Part shown: positions 44,237 to 50,920 of the stretch, in pieces
Layout: each line of letters starts with the position of its first letter
Position numbering within the stretch: the first letter of the stretch is position 1
NCBI GenBank assembly: GCA_964389675.1
Contig: CAYMEV010000008.1
Span: forward strand, 43,084-107,083
Source: an uncultured Candidatus Sumerlaeota bacterium
Lineage (GTDB): Bacteria > CAYMEV01
DNA length: 64,000 nt
Direction of reading: 5' to 3'
Position numbers and translations under genes: made by a program
Notes under the pieces: generated by a model
What the model was told of the DNA's origin: nothing
Databases searched by the model: none
What the model saw: only the letters and a program-made list of their open reading frames with translations

Positions 44237-45469
44237 TTATCTGCTTTTAATGAGGCTTTTATACCTCTCGGTCCTTGGTATCAGCCTTATTATAAAAGCA
44301 AGTATTACAGCCCCTATGCCGTTCAGCTTTAGTATAAAGCTTATTGGATAGGTATCTGTCAGTATGCCGTTTACTATGAATGCCAGAGGGATTACTGCAT
44401 AGCATACTGCAGAAAGGGCTGCAAAGAACCTTCCCTTTATCTCGTTCGGTACCTCACTCTGAAAGAGCGAAAGCGCATTTGCATTGACCACAATGAACGA
44501 TGAGCCTACAAGGGTGAAGAGAAAGAGCATGAGGTATTTATCTGCAGTTGAGCCTATGGAATAATTCATGAATCCCAGTATAAGGATACCCCAGAAAATT
44601 GAAGAATATACCCTTTTCGGATTTATTTTCATACTCAGGATAAAAGCGGTGATCAGAGAGCCCAGGCCCATAAAGAGCTCTTCATATGCCACCCACTTGA
44701 CAGTTTCCTTCAGAATAAACTGCACTATCATAGGAACATAAAGCACAAGCGGAGCCCCAAAGAAATTAAATACAGCAAAACAGATGATCAGGCTGTAGAT
44801 CGGTTTATTACCGGTAATAAAACCAAGCCCTGTTTTGATATCCTTAAAGAAGGATTTTTTTTCAAATACGACTGAAAGCTTTGTCTTTATAAACAGGATA
44901 AAAATGATCGCAATATAAAAGCTTGCTGAATTTGCAAGTATCGCCCCCTTTATTCCTATGGATGCAATAAGGACTCCCCCGAGGATCGCCCCGAGAACAT
45001 TTGAGAACTGTATTACCATTGCATCGGCGGCAACGGCCTTTGGAAGATGCTTTTCATCCGTTACCAGTATCAGGCTCGAGCTTACAGATGACTCGAAAAG
45101 GGGTACAAATGATGCATTCAGGAATGTAAGGGCATAGAGCAGGTTTATATTGAGGCTGTCATGATACATCAGGAAAAATACGGTAAAGATCACAGCACCC
45201 CTTATGATACTTGAAGCGATCATGCATTTTCTCCTGTCCAGCCTGTCGACGACAGTCCCCCAGAACGGGCCGGACAATACCACAGGCAGGACATTAAAGG
45301 ACATGAGCATACCGAGCTCGAACTTGCTGTGGGCGCTGGTTGATGATATGACATACCAGGCTATCGCAATTGTATAGAACTTATCACCGGCAGCTGATAT
45401 AAGCCTGCCTATGAACAGCTTGCGAAAATCTGGGAATAAATAGAAAGGATGCTCTCTGAAATTAGCCAT
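44237..45469 (-). CDS. MFS efflux transporter (DHA3/macrolide-efflux-like)
   Basis: 12 TM segments; 'GTVVDRLDRRKCMI' motif A; 'VPNEIKGRFF'. Confidence 0.9.
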   Translation of the reverse strand: MANFREHPFYLFPDFRKLFIGRLISAAGDKFYTIAIAWYVISSTSAHSKFELGMLMSFNVLPVVLSGPFWGTVVDRLDRRKCMIASSIIRGAVIFTVFFLMYHDSLNINLLYALTFLNASFVPLFESSVSSSLILVTDEKHLPKAVAADAMVIQFSNVLGAILGGVLIASIGIKGAILANSASFYIAIIFILFIKTKLSVVFEKKSFFKDIKTGLGFITGNKPIYSLIICFAVFNFFGAPLVLYVPMIVQFILKETVKWVAYEELFMGLGSLITAFILSMKINPKRVYSSIFWGILILGFMNYSIGSTADKYLMLFLFTLVGSSFIVVNANALSLFQSEVPNEIKGRFFAALSAVCYAVIPLAFIVNGILTDTYPISFILKLNGIGAVILAFIIRLIPRTERYKSLIKSR

Positions 45470-45471
45470 TG

Positions 45472-48114
45472 CTACCTTTTATCGATAATGTGCTTTATTT
45501 TACCTGTCCTGCCCACCCTTTCAATACTTAAAGGAGGTACTATCCTTATAATAATGCTGTCTATCTGCCTGTCTTTCCAGTCTGATGATATTCCCTTCGA
45601 TGATGCTTTTAAGGCATCAAGTACTCTGTCATTAAAATCACTGTTATCATAAAGGTCTTTGTCCTCACGTTTCAGTTCAATGAAAAATGTAAGCCTTTTA
45701 TTGTTCCCGGCCTGTTCAATATGGATCTGATAGAATGGAGAAAGCTCCGGGAACTGCATAATCGCCCTTTCCACCTCGCTTAAGTAGAGGTTGCAGTAGT
45801 TCAGTTTTATCATATCCCCTGTCCTTCCGCGAAGCCTGAACTTCCGGGATGTCCTTCCGCATCCGCATGGCTCGTCAACCCAGTCTATCCTGTCGCATAT
45901 CCTGTATCTTATAATCGGGTGAAGCCTTCTTGAAAGGGTTGTAACAATGGCATCACCATCGTCAATATCCTCAAGGTATGCATAGCTTTCAAAGACATGA
46001 TGCTCGGTATCACGGCAGTGCCTGCACTGGAAGCCTATCGGGCCTATCTCGACGGCTGCATACCCGAATGATGCAACTATATCAGACTTAAAGATCCTCC
46101 TTACATACTCAACATTATTATCAGACAGCATTTCTCCGGCATAGAAGATCTTATCTATCCGGATATCTATCCTGTTGTTTTCAACATACTGAGCAAGAAA
46201 GAGAAGAACGCTAGGGACCAGAAGCATCACATTGGCATTGAATCTCTTCAGATAGGAGATCGTCTGCTCCTCATTCTGGTTTCCCGTCAGCGACAGCACC
46301 CTGCAGCCTGTCTCTTCAAGCCCCTTGTTGACAGCAAGGAATGCTGTCCAGAAAGCGCCTGACCTGAGCAGATTTGCAACAACATCGCCCTTTTCTATGC
46401 CTGCCGCCCTGAAACCGTATCCGAATACCTTCTCCGATTCCTCAAACTCCCTGTATGAATAGCAGACATACTTCATGGAGCCTGTAGTGCCTCCTGCAGA
46501 AAATATATAGCAGTCTTTCGGTTCCATGGTAAGCATATCAAAGTTTTTATCACAGCTGTGCGAGGACAGATGTGATTTCTCAAGGACTGGCACCCTTTTG
46601 AAATCATCAAGTTTGCTTAAGGGAAGGCTTATATTTTTGTAAAACTCCCTGTAGAAGGCAGAATTCTGGGAAACAGCAAGAATATGATTAAGACGGGAAA
46701 GCAGTATAATATCCTTTTCCTTTTTTTTAAGGAATTCAAGGCCGAAATGCATTACAGGCAGGTCCTCGTATGCCACCTGCTTTATAAGGAGCTGTGCTAT
46801 ATGCACTCCGTCATGAGGAGACCTTGGATCGTGAACGCTTGACATGCTCCCCGGTTTGCAGAACCTCAGTACCCCGGCATTTATGAATTCCCTGGATATG
46901 TCCTGGATACCCTTTTCCCCTCCTATTGAGACCGTTGAAAGGTAGTATTTCATATACTTTAAATTCCCGCTGAATATTTCCCTGTAATCCTTGATCCTGT
47001 TTATATAAATGGTCCTGTTCAGGGGACTGTCCACAAGGTCACAGTTATTCCTCACAATTATTGTATGATGAGATGTGGTTCCTTCATAGATCTCAGCCCT
47101 GCCCTTAAATGCATCCCACTTTGCCAGCTCCCTTTCCTTTCTTATCTCTACTGCAGGATCGACAGGAATCTCTCCCTGCGGGAAAAGCCTGCCCATATCT
47201 TCAAGGGCTTCATAGAGGTACTTTATGAAAATATCTGTATTTTCTGATTCCTCTGCAAAGATATTCTGACAGCTTGTGCATGCCCTCTGCTCCCAGCATA
47301 CTATATCCTCGGCAAACCCCCGCGCGTACTCACGGAGGGACTCTTTACGCGCATCTTTAAGCAAAAGCCCGAAGCTTATCTTGGGCCCGAAGGGCCATAG
47401 CTCTGTCTTTGCAGAAAGGCCGCTTTTGTAGCTTACAACAGCCTCCTGCCCTCCGAAAAGAAGTATGGCATCGCTGTTCTGCTTTACAAAGCTGTCTATC
47501 TCCTTATCATTCCTGCTCCAGTAGACCATACTGAAATAGGGCATAATAAGCCCTTCTCTGTCCTCTTCCCTGAGAACGCTGCAGAAAATAGTGGGAAACA
47601 GAAAATCCTGCTTTGATACCTTAAGCAGGTTGAGGTTTTTTGTGATAATTCCATAGATAAGGCTGTCTATAGATCCGAGAAACACATTGCCTGCTGCAAT
47701 ATGCGACACAAGGCCTGCAGGTACAGCCCTCGAAAGCAGCGTATGCACCTGGTAGACAGGTTGGTCGAGGCAGTGATAATCTTTCAGAAAGTGAAGCCTC
47801 CCGGAAAGGCTTTCGTAAGACAGCATCGCGGGGATCATTTCAAGCCCCTTCTCCACCATTTTTGGTGAATAGTCTATCAGTGCCGGAAGCTTTTCCTGTA
47901 TCTCCTTATAAAACAGGCTGTCCTTATCAGCAAACCTCCTGCCTGTTCTTTCAAGAAGCCCTATTATATCATCAATGGGCTTTTCATAAAACTCTCTCTT
48001 CTTTTTGCTTATTATGTCCTGTGAGAAAGCAGTCTCAAAATCCCTGATATCCAGTTCCCGCTTCTCTTTGATCTCATCTCCCCATATTACTGGTATAAAG
48101 TCCTGTTTCTTCAT
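45472..48114 (-). CDS. LuxC-like acyl-CoA/acyl-protein reductase fused to a PaaK/F390-synthetase-like adenylate-forming domain
   Basis: N-half: 'HIAAGNV', 'FGGQEAV', 'FGPKISF', 'EQRACTSCQ' (catalytic-type Cys at 47278-47280). C-half: 'SAGGTTG', 'YAGE', 'FGYAAVEIG', 'RYRICD', 'RGRTGDMIK'. Confidence 0.85.
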   Translation of the reverse strand: MKKQDFIPVIWGDEIKEKRELDIRDFETAFSQDIISKKKREFYEKPIDDIIGLLERTGRRFADKDSLFYKEIQEKLPALIDYSPKMVEKGLEMIPAMLSYESLSGRLHFLKDYHCLDQPVYQVHTLLSRAVPAGLVSHIAAGNVFLGSIDSLIYGIITKNLNLLKVSKQDFLFPTIFCSVLREEDREGLIMPYFSMVYWSRNDKEIDSFVKQNSDAILLFGGQEAVVSYKSGLSAKTELWPFGPKISFGLLLKDARKESLREYARGFAEDIVCWEQRACTSCQNIFAEESENTDIFIKYLYEALEDMGRLFPQGEIPVDPAVEIRKERELAKWDAFKGRAEIYEGTTSHHTIIVRNNCDLVDSPLNRTIYINRIKDYREIFSGNLKYMKYYLSTVSIGGEKGIQDISREFINAGVLRFCKPGSMSSVHDPRSPHDGVHIAQLLIKQVAYEDLPVMHFGLEFLKKKEKDIILLSRLNHILAVSQNSAFYREFYKNISLPLSKLDDFKRVPVLEKSHLSSHSCDKNFDMLTMEPKDCYIFSAGGTTGSMKYVCYSYREFEESEKVFGYGFRAAGIEKGDVVANLLRSGAFWTAFLAVNKGLEETGCRVLSLTGNQNEEQTISYLKRFNANVMLLVPSVLLFLAQYVENNRIDIRIDKIFYAGEMLSDNNVEYVRRIFKSDIVASFGYAAVEIGPIGFQCRHCRDTEHHVFESYAYLEDIDDGDAIVTTLSRRLHPIIRYRICDRIDWVDEPCGCGRTSRKFRLRGRTGDMIKLNYCNLYLSEVERAIMQFPELSPFYQIHIEQAGNNKRLTFFIELKREDKDLYDNSDFNDRVLDALKASSKGISSDWKDRQIDSIIIRIVPPLSIERVGRTGKIKHIIDKR

Positions 48115-49253
48115 TTTACCGCTCCGCTCTTTTTGAGTATTTCCTGGGCTGCTATGGCACAGCCTTTATGCTTCTTCGTCCCTCCCCTTCTTACAGACAT
48201 TATATATTTCCCCTTAAGTCCGCACTCACAGTCACTGCCCAGCCTTACAAGGTCAGTGGACAGTATTGCCTGGTTAGGCTGTGCGGTATTATAAGGGGTA
48301 TAAAGGCAAAGGAGCCCTTCCTCACCCAGGGGTTTCTCCCTTTTGTCAAGAGGGTCTATAATTTTAAGCCTTGAGTAGACTGGTATATGGAAATGGCCCT
48401 TCCTGCATGCAATATATGGAACACCATGCTCTGCCATTCCGAATGTATCCCTTATATTCTCCGGGTCAATTCCCAGGTATTTATTTATATACTGCGTAAA
48501 CTCTTCATGGGTCATAGGCTGGCCCAGGTGGTTCTTCCATCCTCCCCCTGAAATTATGAAGCTTTTCGGGTGAAGCCTCAGGCTGCCTTTGATCTTTCTT
48601 ATCTTTTCAGTTAGTGCGCATATAAATGCAGGAAAACCAAGAAGCCTTACCGGCCCGTCGCCGGAAAGCTCTATCAGCCTGTCTGCCCATCTTTCAGCAT
48701 CAAACCTGAATTCACCCGTATCCTTATCCTGCTGAAGCACCCAGTTTTCGCTCTTTATGGGGGTGAGGTCCCTCTTATGCATCTGGCTCCATGAGGTGCC
48801 GATCCTGTGGCGGTCAGAAGGCTCATAAGACATCAGGAAACAGTGGACAGGCTCATCGCTTACACATCCAATTGCATTAAAGCAGTTGTATGCAAGCCTT
48901 TCAAGCCTGTCAAGGCTGGGCCTGTCAAGAAAAAGATGTGTTTTCTGCCCCCCGGTCCCCGAGCTGGTCAGTGTTAGTGCAATTTCAGACTCATCGATAC
49001 TGGAAAAACTGTTTATCTTCATGACTCCCACAAAGAGAGGCGGTATTGCAAATACATCATCAATGGAATCTATATCTTCGGGTTTTATGCCTGCTCTTCC
49101 GGCAAGATAGGAAATGAAAGGCTGTCTTTTTATCTGCCATGAAAAATTCTCCCTCATTGCATCAATGAAGGTCTTCTCAATCCTCTCATTCAGTTCATAG
49201 GCATCCTTGTAACTGCATAGAGCATCTATGCTCTTAAACATGTCTTTATTCAT
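48111..49253 (-). CDS. luxE: LuxE-like acyl-protein synthetase
   Basis: 'LTSSGTGG', 'LLGFPAF', 'GGGWK', 'DTFGMAEH', 'ILSTDL', and C-terminal 'KGCA' (acylated-Cys position). Family-level call only; no luciferase genes nearby. Confidence 0.85.
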   Translation of the reverse strand: MNKDMFKSIDALCSYKDAYELNERIEKTFIDAMRENFSWQIKRQPFISYLAGRAGIKPEDIDSIDDVFAIPPLFVGVMKINSFSSIDESEIALTLTSSGTGGQKTHLFLDRPSLDRLERLAYNCFNAIGCVSDEPVHCFLMSYEPSDRHRIGTSWSQMHKRDLTPIKSENWVLQQDKDTGEFRFDAERWADRLIELSGDGPVRLLGFPAFICALTEKIRKIKGSLRLHPKSFIISGGGWKNHLGQPMTHEEFTQYINKYLGIDPENIRDTFGMAEHGVPYIACRKGHFHIPVYSRLKIIDPLDKREKPLGEEGLLCLYTPYNTAQPNQAILSTDLVRLGSDCECGLKGKYIMSVRRGGTKKHKGCAIAAQEILKKSGAVK

Positions 49254-50776
49254 ACTTCCCTGTTCGGGTCCTCCTCTTTAATCAGATTCAGTATATCCCT
49301 GCCTGTCTCACTGTCGATTGAAATGCTGTCATAATCAACCATGCAGTTGTTTAAATACTGCATTATAAGCTGATCCCTGCCCTCATGCCCAGGCATGATG
49401 CCGGCAAAGAAAAATCCCATCTCTGCCAGGTGTTCCCCTGCAGAATATGTAAAGGGTTCAGTAAGGTCGAGATATATGTATATACTGTCTATCCTGTTAA
49501 GGCAGATATTCTTTATATGCTTTTTCATAGAATCAAGAAAATCATATCCGTATTCAATAACCCTCATAGTGGCTGTATTATATACATCGGCTTTTACTGA
49601 AATATTTGTTTTTCTATTTAAATCACCCACTACTCCGGGATTGGAGAACTCCTTTTCAAAGCCGAGGCTGTCATATATTTTTCCAGCTATTTCTGCATAC
49701 CTTTCAGGAATATACTTTTTCTTATCAACCCTCTCTTTCAGCTGACGGTAGCAGACAAGCAGGGTCTCCTTCCCCGTTTCCCCCTCTTTTATCTCCTTGA
49801 AGGCCATGGGTGAAATTCTCAAAAGAAGCAGGGCAGTATCCTTCATCCCGAACCTGTGGGCGGACTTCTGCGAATAAACATGGCTTGTCACAGCCTGAAC
49901 AAAAATTCCCTCAAGAGATAACTCACAAGCCTTCCTGATGAGCTCTTCCGTCATCCTCTCAAGGCATTTCATTCCCCTGAACCTGGGATATACAAAAGCA
50001 ACGCCTATCTCTGCAATATTATCATGCTCCCCCATGGTCAGAGCTGCATGGCCCATGAGCTCTTCCTCCTCCTCAGTTACTGCAACTGCTGAGATCATCC
50101 TGCCTGTCCTGTTGAGCTCTATTACCCTTTCAGGATAGTAGATGGTATCATAAATATATGTATAGCCATAGGTAAAAAAGACGCACTTGGCAAGCTCTAT
50201 CGCCTCACTGTCCCTGATAGCCCTGATATAATAATCAACCGGCTTGATATCAGTTTTTCTTGTTTTTTCCTTGATCTCTGTTTCAGCCTTATGGAGGCTT
50301 TCATCCATAATAAACTTATAGATTATTATCTCTCTGCCCCCTTTTCCAAGGTTCCTGAACTCAACCTTGTCCATCAGGCTTTTAAGGTAGTATATCCCTA
50401 TCCCTTCTATATTATCCTCTGTATGCTCTTTTTCGGGGCTGTACCTGTCAATTGTCTCCAGATCGTACGGGACACCCTTCTCATTGATCTTTATCTCAAA
50501 GCCATGACTGTCCCTGAGGAAAGATACCTCTATATCTATATCTGTAAGCAGGTTTCCCTGATAGTTAATCAGTTCTTCAAGCAGGTCTTCAAGCCCGAAC
50601 TGCAGCCTTCTTATAAAATCCTCCTCCATTCTGAAAAGCCTGAAGAATTCATCCGCTGCTGATAGAACAAGAGGAAGTAATGAAGATTCTGCAGGTATTA
50701 TGATCCTTGCCCTGTCTGGTTTTCTGTCCATTTTGAGCCCCTTTGCTTTAATCTGGTACTGGAATAAATTTATCAT
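49250..50776 (-). CDS. HATPase_c (RsbW/anti-sigma-like) - GNAT acetyltransferase fusion
   Basis: N-terminal 'GIGIYYLKSLMDKVEF' G-box-like segment; 'AEIGVAFVYPRFRGMK' GNAT motif A; second GNAT-like half. Probable start at MDRKP (about 50731). Confidence 0.75.
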   Translation of the reverse strand: MINLFQYQIKAKGLKMDRKPDRARIIIPAESSLLPLVLSAADEFFRLFRMEEDFIRRLQFGLEDLLEELINYQGNLLTDIDIEVSFLRDSHGFEIKINEKGVPYDLETIDRYSPEKEHTEDNIEGIGIYYLKSLMDKVEFRNLGKGGREIIIYKFIMDESLHKAETEIKEKTRKTDIKPVDYYIRAIRDSEAIELAKCVFFTYGYTYIYDTIYYPERVIELNRTGRMISAVAVTEEEEELMGHAALTMGEHDNIAEIGVAFVYPRFRGMKCLERMTEELIRKACELSLEGIFVQAVTSHVYSQKSAHRFGMKDTALLLLRISPMAFKEIKEGETGKETLLVCYRQLKERVDKKKYIPERYAEIAGKIYDSLGFEKEFSNPGVVGDLNRKTNISVKADVYNTATMRVIEYGYDFLDSMKKHIKNICLNRIDSIYIYLDLTEPFTYSAGEHLAEMGFFFAGIMPGHEGRDQLIMQYLNNCMVDYDSISIDSETGRDILNLIKEEDPNREV

Positions 50777-50870: not shown

Positions 50871-50902
50871 AAAAAAAAGGCAGAGGCATAAACGCCCCTG
50901 CC
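50871..50902 (-). terminator. Intrinsic terminator downstream of Kelch paralog 1
   Basis: Minus strand GGCAGGGGC-GTTTAT-GCCTCTGCC followed by a run of T. Confidence 0.75.
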
Positions 50903-50920
50903 CTTATAATTATAATACCC

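Follow-up and report, generated by a model that had tools for sequence, protein, structure and literature searches.

P0001, a fusion of a LuxC domain and a PaaK-like ligase encoded in the window (the whole 64,000-nucleotide stretch of contig CAYMEV010000008.1 that was analysed), is probably a distant LeupB-type bifunctional enzyme of a four-gene, carrier-free and NRPS-independent cassette, which would make and export a small N-acylated peptide aldehyde by steps whose order we infer. Judged by its sequence, it is most likely a new member of the LeupB architecture and not a new enzyme type. The locus has the following features:

44237..45469, minus strand: MFS exporter (MFS_1/MFS_3, EntS-like), last gene of the operon (Pfam, NCBIfam)
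45472..48114, minus strand: LuxC::PaaK-like ligase fusion (P0001), LeupB-type (ORF and translation, Pfam, NCBIfam, BLASTP against LeupB, AF2)
45472..46749, minus strand: PaaK-like ANL ligase domain, residues ~456–880 (Pfam, invariant residues, tree)
45499–45501, minus strand: codon of Lys872 (invariant residue)
46471–46500, minus strand: P-loop of the ligase, residues 539–548 (motif SAGGTTGSMK)
46750..48114, minus strand: LuxC domain (ALDH-fold thioester reductase), residues 1 to ~455 (Pfam, match to 7XC6_A)
47278–47280, minus strand: codon of the catalytic Cys279 (alignment to 7XC6_A)
48111..49253, minus strand: LuxE-like acyl-protein synthetase, LeupA homologue (Pfam LuxE, E-value 4e-31; LeupA match)
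49250..50776, minus strand: HATPase_c_2 (RsbW-like)-GNAT fusion, LeupD-like cap enzyme, gene 1 of the operon (Pfam, LeupD match)
50876..50905, minus strand: terminator-like hairpin of the upstream Kelch gene (13-pair stem, then a T run)

The frame at 45472–48114 is free of stop codons on the minus strand, and its translation confirms the original prediction of one 880-aa ORF in which a LuxC domain precedes a PaaK-like domain; the strand had not been given there. Both domains were found by Pfam, LuxC (PF05893) at residues 45–440 with an E-value of 1e-62 and AMP-binding at residues 536–685, followed by AMP-binding_C_2 at residues 775–880. In the alignment to LuxC of P. phosphoreum (7XC6_A), Cys279 falls in a Q-x-A-C motif, and Cys279, Gln276 and Ala278 are invariant in the 114 sequences of the fusion homologue alignment, as are G541, G542, D741, R764 and K872 of the ligase domain. 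The assignment of the second half as an adenylation domain is borne out by its intact catalytic motifs, namely the P-loop SAGGTTGSMK, Arg764 and Lys872, the latter two being the counterparts of the Arg326/Lys422 pair of PaaK1 (PMC9157457). A GG-type P-loop closed by Lys or Arg is the norm across the whole clade, including LeupB and LeupC, and is therefore a family trait and no lesion. The ligase domain shares its fold, an N-domain with a small C-subdomain, with the solved relatives PaaK1/2 (2Y27, 2Y4O), BT_0428 (4R1L), NatL2, AjiA1 and ClxA, of which the last three are CoA-independent ester- or amide-forming ligases, and it has the Cys/His cluster around a C-x-C-G motif and the catalytic Arg/Lys pair of the PaaK family; unlike that family, it has GG in its P-loop, with the ANL Lys kept. 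In the AF2 model of P0001 (pLDDT 93, pTM 0.90), the folds of which match LuxC 7XC6 and PaaK1 2Y27 (TM 0.84 to 2Y27_A), both halves are packed as a single confident body with no low-confidence linker.

The order of the domains had led to a description of the protein as a reverse-order carboxylic acid reductase (CAR). CARs are built as A-T-R; their carrier domain bears a phosphopantetheine arm, and their reductase is of the SDR type. The net chemistry may match, with an acid being activated at the expense of ATP and then reduced by NADPH to the aldehyde; however, P0001 has an ALDH-fold reductase that would act via a Cys thioester, and it has neither a carrier domain nor an SDR R-domain. At an E-value of 0.01, Pfam finds in P0001 no PP-binding or other carrier domain, as the original prediction had stated, and no NAD_binding_4, and CAR identity was rejected on these grounds. 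CAR and P0001 are evolutionarily unrelated, and the reverse order is a formal likeness only. Nor is the implied novelty supported, as the same architecture is that of LeupB of leupABCD and, in the tree set, of 101 of the 139 nearest LuxC domains.

The operon of the protease inhibitor leupeptin, leupABCD with an MFS gene, occurs in Klebsiella michiganensis/oxytoca, Photorhabdus and Xenorhabdus, and its components are given in two papers as an MFS protein, a LuxE-family protein, an acyl-CoA reductase, a PaaK-family ligase and a GNAT (PMC8283571 and PMC11480411, citing Li et al., Angew Chem 2020). The K. michiganensis operon was located with the published primers leupA_f and leupB_r, each of which matches at a single site; the two sites are separated by 1235 bp, the published distance, and that of leupB_r falls within an 802-aa ORF (leupB) whose product consists of LuxC and AMP-binding (Pfam). 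P0001 and LeupB thus have the LuxC domain and then the PaaK-like ligase in one chain, and BLASTP aligns them colinearly over residues 132–772 with an E-value of 1e-37, at an identity of only 23%. The alignment reaches a shared C-terminal motif, R/Q-T/S-G-K ... D-x-R, which in P0001 reads R-T-G-K-x-x-x-x-D-x-R. LeupB also carries the counterparts of the catalytic Cys279, of G541 and G542 in the GG-type P-loop, of D741, and of the hinge Arg and the Lys (R764, K872). A LuxC tree (FastTree; its deep nodes are weak) nests P0001 as well as LeupB among fused proteins, and a ligase-domain tree (quick IQ-TREE) unites all cluster-borne ligases, whether fused or LeupC-like, in a single clade with a support of 100, apart from genuine PaaK; LeupB groups with the same partners in both trees. 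P0001 differs from LeupB in belonging to a separate, well-supported subfamily.

The likeness extends to the neighbouring genes, as in both operons a LuxE-like gene with a tail Cys, a GNAT and an MFS gene adjoin the fusion and there is no carrier protein or NRPS. On its upstream side, the four-gene unit is delimited by the hairpin at 50876..50905; the unit is flanked by Kelch proteins and an unknown membrane protein (Pfam) and has a GC content of 0.41–0.46, the same as its flanks, so that there is no sign of recent transfer. The LuxE-like gene, which overlaps the start of the fusion ORF by 4 nt, is the second activating module that had been predicted beside the fusion, giving two for one reductase. 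Its product is 34% identical to LeupA over the full length (E-value 8e-66), and it retains the GGGWK loop, the RR pair and a C-terminal K-G-C with Cys365. In the lux system, the swinging C-terminal Cys of LuxE feeds LuxC (PMC9157457); this relay Cys is retained in 61 of 62 partners of the fusion and also in LeupA. LuxE adjoins the fusion in every related locus that is uncut by a contig end, and a natural LuxE-LuxC-ligase triple fusion of 1276 aa (P0072) exists among the homologues. The product of the first gene contains HATPase_c_2 at residues 27–153 and GNAT at residues 230–310 (Pfam), and its residues 184–317 match residues 4–136 of LeupD with 32% identity (E-value 2.5e-14); the RsbW-like N-terminal domain is an extra compared to LeupD. 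Such a cap-enzyme gene occurs together with the fusion in 47 of 80 loci.

Two further components set the operon apart from leup. An MFS gene is found in many related loci, yet the MFS protein of the window is of another type, with no specific similarity to that of the Klebsiella leup operon. The third ligase, LeupC, also has no counterpart here: a stand-alone LeupC-like ligase was not found in the window by Pfam, a search of the whole genome with LeupC returned the fused domain as the sole match, and such a ligase is present in 11 of the 80 related loci. The hosts differ too, as the window comes from an uncultured bacterium; this host of the minimal two-ligase version is a deep-branching inhabitant of marine sediment.

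On this basis, a pathway can be proposed in which the GNAT would cap an amino acid with an acyl group, and the fused PaaK-like domain would adenylate the capped acid and couple it to a second amino acid by amide formation. Next, the LuxE-like protein would adenylate the new C-terminal carboxylate, load its own Cys365 and pass the acyl group to Cys279 of the LuxC domain, from which NADPH would release the aldehyde for export by the MFS pump. In leup as here, we infer which enzyme would take which step. Reduction from LuxE to LuxC, with the fused ligase as the amide former, is favored because LuxE keeps its swinging C-terminal Cys. Since there are two adenylating units here versus three in leup, the predicted product has one residue fewer than leupeptin and would be an N-acyl dipeptide aldehyde. 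Of the two options in the original prediction, the activation of two different acids would fit this leupeptin logic. The leup-type reading is supported by the colinearity with LeupB, the matches to LeupA and LeupD, the shared ligase clade, the adjacency of LuxE, the triple fusion, the near-universal relay Cys and the invariant catalytic residues, and also by the existence of CoA-independent amide- and ester-forming enzymes in the PaaK family. It is weakened by the low identity to LeupB, the weak deep nodes of the LuxC tree, the lack of a LeupC-like ligase in the genome, the different MFS and one locus of Elusimicrobia (L101), in which the fusion is present with no LuxE within 8 kb.

This last locus is a hint that, at times, the reductase may be supplied by its fused ligase with no second module, and it is one of several observations in favor of a self-contained carboxylic-acid reductase, in which the acyl-AMP or acyl-CoA of the fused domain would go straight to Cys279 and the LuxE-like protein would be the amide ligase. 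Enzymes of consecutive steps are often fused, the two halves form one body in the AF2 model, the fused ligase is universal whereas extra ligases come and go among loci, and LuxC is annotated (Pfam) and known as an acyl-CoA reductase (PMC9157457). Such direct channeling, the other option of the original prediction, may occur, but it competes with the relay Cys of LuxE, which is kept along with the Lys loop and the Arg pair and whose only known role is the acyl relay to LuxC; moreover, a flexible tail with a conserved Cys is lacking from the ligase domain. We regard the self-contained reductase as unlikely.

Lower still is the probability of a genuine acyl-CoA ligase in the fused domain, which would supply an unusual acyl-CoA (for example, aryl-acetyl or short branched) for the N-cap set by the GNAT, while LuxE and LuxC would act on just one N-acyl amino acid and reduce it to the N-acyl amino aldehyde. 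In favor are a complete PaaK fold with all its motifs, Lys872 among them, the use of acyl-CoA donors by GNATs, and the lack of any ligase in the cassette beyond its two activating units. Against this, the domain groups with the Leup ligases, far from the CoA-forming PaaK; the NCBIfam PaaK-type models that cover residues 464–880 score far under their equivalog cut-offs, with TIGR02155 (PaaK) at 129 bits versus 646. By this score and by a tree position outside the true PaaK clade (support 100), the identity of the domain, which unlike PaaK is fused to a reductase, as a true phenylacetate-CoA ligase was rejected.

It is highly improbable that the operon is a lux-type fatty-acid reductase, whose long-chain fatty aldehyde or alcohol would go into the synthesis of lipids, waxes or signals. 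Pfam LuxC and LuxE both match and the folds match 7XC6, and the operon shares with lux an ALDH-fold thioester reductase with an active-site Cys, a LuxE partner with the Lys loop, the Arg pair and the swinging Cys, and presumably a carrier-protein-free acid-to-aldehyde chemistry consuming ATP and NADPH. However, both proteins score far under the NCBIfam equivalog cut-offs, LuxC with 120 bits versus 750 and LuxE with 86 bits versus 550, and the LuxE-like protein is much closer to LeupA than to LuxE (E-value 8e-23). The C-terminal segment P460–P488 of LuxC covers a long hydrophobic cleft (PMC9157457), whereas the match of P0001 to LuxC stops near residue 450 and a whole ligase domain replaces this segment. 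A GNAT and an exporter are attached, which are unfit for the supply of a fatty aldehyde, and luxD and luxAB are absent among the operon and flanking genes (Pfam); the identification as a lux fatty acid reductase was rejected on the sub-cut-off scores and the lack of luxD/luxAB in the operon. The comparison also qualifies the proposal of a carrier-free acid reductase, of which the lack of a carrier domain stands, but not the novelty, as LuxC/LuxE is already such a system.

An artefactual joining of two separate genes, by read-through, frameshift or misassembly, is already refuted by conservation, because full-length homologues of P0001 fall into 95 protein clusters and the fusion is conserved in at least 215 GTDB species genomes, in addition to the shared architecture of the closest LuxC domains, a reading frame that is open and colinear across all aligned fusion members, and window-identical contigs from a second marine-sediment study, which are short, none spanning the whole domain junction. 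A search for shorter LuxC relatives gave 7 matches only, most of them below full LuxC domain length.

Members with the LeupB architecture span Clostridia, Bacteroidota, Synergistota, Desulfobacterota, Elusimicrobiota, Bdellovibrionota and Riflebacteria, and with its hundreds of divergent members the architecture is ancient and widespread. A literature search found no description of a wider family of leup-like, NRPS-independent peptide aldehydes, and to our knowledge leupeptin is the only characterized example of this type of pathway. Tentatively, LuxE and the LuxC::ligase could be the fixed end-module of a large and little-studied carrier-free peptide-aldehyde system, in which the number of PaaK-like ligases would set the length of the peptide; in that case, the product of the two-ligase version here would be a new protease inhibitor, an N-acyl dipeptide aldehyde, and the RsbW-like domain on the capping enzyme might gate output post-translationally via STAS partner switching. 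What this adds for the window is an annotation and a product prediction that can be tested, and no new principle: an unannotated 'acyl-CoA reductase' is now placed in a probable leupeptin-type pathway. The family as a whole would be a reservoir of aldehyde protease inhibitors made independently of NRPSs and a source of compact biocatalysts for the conversion of acids to aldehydes, with no requirement for phosphopantetheinylation.

The fusion protein encoded in the window (P0001) is a stop-free translation of 880 aa from the minus strand (45472-48114), in which Pfam places LuxC (PF05893) at residues 45-440 (E 1e-62), AMP-binding at 536-685 and AMP-binding_C_2 at 775-880, and finds no carrier domain. 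The NCBIfam LuxC model spans residues 20-450 and PaaK-type models 464-880, with bit scores all far under the equivalog cut-offs (LuxC 120 vs 750; PaaK 129 vs 646). Among solved structures, the N-terminal half resembles Photobacterium phosphoreum LuxC (7XC6_A, E 4e-25), with the active-site Cys aligned, and the C-terminal half the PaaK-family ligases 4R1L (E 3e-32) and 2Y27. The AlphaFold2 model, computed with 114 homologues as input, is very confident (mean pLDDT 93.1, pTM 0.90), without a low-confidence linker; its halves superpose on 7XC6_A (TM 0.82) and PaaK1-ATP (2Y27_A, TM 0.84), while structure comparison of the model found no solved chain combining both folds.

A search of 5.8 billion proteins returned homologues in 95 clusters, mostly covering 95-100% of the query at ~880 aa, from Clostridium, Haloimpatiens, Bacteroidia, Desulfobacterota, Synergistota, Riflebacteria and Elusimicrobia, and when each species was represented by one genome, 215 genomes were seen to encode a relative, so that the reading of the fusion as an artefact is rejected. 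With the LuxC domain alone as query, HMMER gave 1565 matches among 1.84 billion representatives, and >300 residues follow this domain in 101 of the 139 best usable matches, hence fusion is the usual state of the nearest LuxC relatives. The single carrier-free LuxC and PaaK-like ORF of the original prediction is thereby borne out, and its fusion is widely conserved.

A known counterpart is the leupeptin operon leupABCD of Klebsiella michiganensis, for which coordinates and PCR primers are published (PMC8283571). Primer leupA_f has one match only across the species-genome collection, in K. michiganensis DSM 25444, where the distance to leupB_r is 1235 bp, equal to the published amplicon size, and leupB_r falls within an 802-aa ORF. 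By Pfam, this locus encodes:

MFS transporter
LeupA, LuxE, 378 aa
LeupB, LuxC + AMP-binding, 802 aa
LeupC, AMP-binding + AMP-binding_C_2, 446 aa
LeupD, GNAT, 305 aa

Thus LeupB, too, joins LuxC and a ligase in one chain. The corresponding features of the window (genes by Pfam) are:

50905-50876, strong terminator-like hairpin ending the upstream Kelch gene
50776-49250, minus strand, HATPase_c_2-GNAT fusion gene
49253-48111, minus strand, LuxE-like gene
48114-45472, minus strand, P0001 fusion gene
45469-44237, minus strand, MFS exporter gene

The four genes lie head to tail, with 4-nt overlaps at each of the first two junctions, and form their own unit, as the hairpin terminates the Kelch gene; GC content does not differ between the operon and its flanks. 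P0001 is colinear with LeupB over residues 132-772 (23% identity, E 1e-37), and in a multiple alignment the common motifs reach the extreme C-terminus of both: Q-x-A-C in the reductase, the P-loop x-G-G-(T/S)-(T/S)-G-x-x-K, G-P-x-G ... C ... H-H, R-Y-x-x-G-D ... C-x-C-G ... L-L-G-R and the C-terminal T/S-G-K ... D-x-R. The window LuxE matches LeupA over its full length (34% identity, E 8e-66) and residues 184-317 of the GNAT protein match LeupD 4-136 (32%, E 2.5e-14), while the MFS proteins have no specific relationship. P0001 is thus a new, divergent member of the known LeupB kind within a leup-type cassette, probably for a peptide aldehyde; the original observation is confirmed and its interpretation partly supported. 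The window contains no LeupC-like extra ligase, and searching the full 3.57-Mb genome with LeupC recovers the fused domain of P0001 only, hence this cassette is a minimal form that has two adenylating units.

The P-loop, S-A-G-G-T-T-G at residues 539-545 with G541 and G542 invariant, has the predicted sequence but is not unusual, since x-G-G is the family norm: it is found in LeupB, LeupC and all other cluster ligases with a recognisable motif, closing with the canonical ANL Lys/Arg. Arg764 and Lys872 are invariant and correspond to Arg326/Lys422 of PaaK1, a pair termed catalytically essential (PMC9157457), hence the adenylation domain looks active by sequence. In the ligase domain (window 45472-46749), C697, H706, C750 and C752 form an invariant or almost invariant Cys/His/Cys/Cys set, common in alignment to Bacteroides thetaiotaomicron BT_0428, which looks like a candidate structural metal site.

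In a ligase-domain tree rooted on the genuine PaaK of Klebsiella and of one relative genome, every cluster-borne ligase, fused or stand-alone LeupC-like, falls in one clade (support 100), within which the P0001 subfamily (support 97) branches as sister to all others. LeupB has the same partners, protein P0241 and the Elusimicrobia type, in both this and the LuxC tree. In the latter, a FastTree with weak deep nodes, both P0001 and LeupB sit among fused proteins, and the clade placement of this domain is tentative. The congruence of the two trees suggests a single old fusion followed by divergence, and at least two origins of stand-alone ligases inside the fused-domain radiation.

In the 80 best loci, LuxE neighbours the fusion wherever the locus is not truncated by a contig end, HATPase-GNAT occurs in 47 and MFS in at least 25. 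An extra LeupC-like ligase is present in 11, and most loci of the clade that comprises Elusimicrobia and Bdellovibrionota have one too. An Acidobacteria MAG (L093:1841-8442) has a leup-like intermediate layout (MFS_3, unknown 455-aa protein, 430-aa PaaK-like ligase, LuxE, fusion), with a PAS/GAF hybrid histidine kinase downstream. Other fused architectures, seen in P0132, P0226 and P0104, are LuxE-LuxC-ThiF (1137 aa), LuxE-LuxC (814 aa) and LuxC-ligase-Clp_N-YgbB (1244 aa), the last of which may be a mis-called gene. A complete LuxE, fusion and HATPase-GNAT cassette, 43% identical to that of the window, is carried by an 8.9-kb contig of an archaeal bin (Methanolobus MAG, L021:1377-3971), through horizontal transfer or through misbinning. 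In about 12-13 Bacteroidales loci, LuxE is immediately preceded by a STAS (anti-anti-sigma-like) gene, and a dCache-HAMP-SpoIIE-HATPase_c_2 sensor is encoded as well (e.g., L055:6426-6737 and L061:13263-15593, Muribaculaceae/Bacteroidales relatives); the two make up a partner-switching set, which may explain the RsbW-like domain on the window GNAT protein. Seven STAS genes occur in the window's genome, all of them on other contigs. The host is an uncultured marine-sediment bacterium. Only one of the species genomes shares its genus, and all 29 further relatives are linked to it at domain level only, so that its lineage seems to be deep and very sparsely sampled. A partial 16S gene (G000:C7:144814-145668) is located at the end of a contig.

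The LuxE of the lux system first adenylates the acid, then loads the acyl group onto its own C-terminal Cys364, which is swung over to the LuxC Cys (PMC9157457). The window LuxE retains the G-G-G-W-K loop, the R-R pair and the K-G-C tail (Cys365), and the tail Cys is present in 61 of 62 partner genes, in LeupA and in the linker of a natural LuxE-LuxC-ligase triple fusion within the P0001 subfamily (P0072, 1276 aa). With this precedent and these retained features, a LuxE-to-LuxC relay is favoured for reduction, which would leave amide-bond formation to the fused ligase; NatL2, AjiA1 and ClxA, CoA-independent PaaK-family ligases among the structural matches, show that this is feasible. The number of adenylating units supports this division of labour. 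Leupeptin, acetyl-Leu-Leu-argininal, requires two peptide bonds and one activation for reduction. As leup has three adenylating units and the window cassette two, a single peptide bond is predicted here, and the product would be an N-acyl dipeptide aldehyde. This order of steps is inferred. As the chief alternative, the fused ligase would supply the reductase Cys279 directly; the rigid two-domain model is consistent with this, as is an Elusimicrobia MAG locus (L101:8001-10595) where the fusion is accompanied by MFS and two GNAT genes, and no LuxE is found within 8 kb on either side. This LuxE-less locus offers a possible natural test of LuxE-independent function of the fusion.
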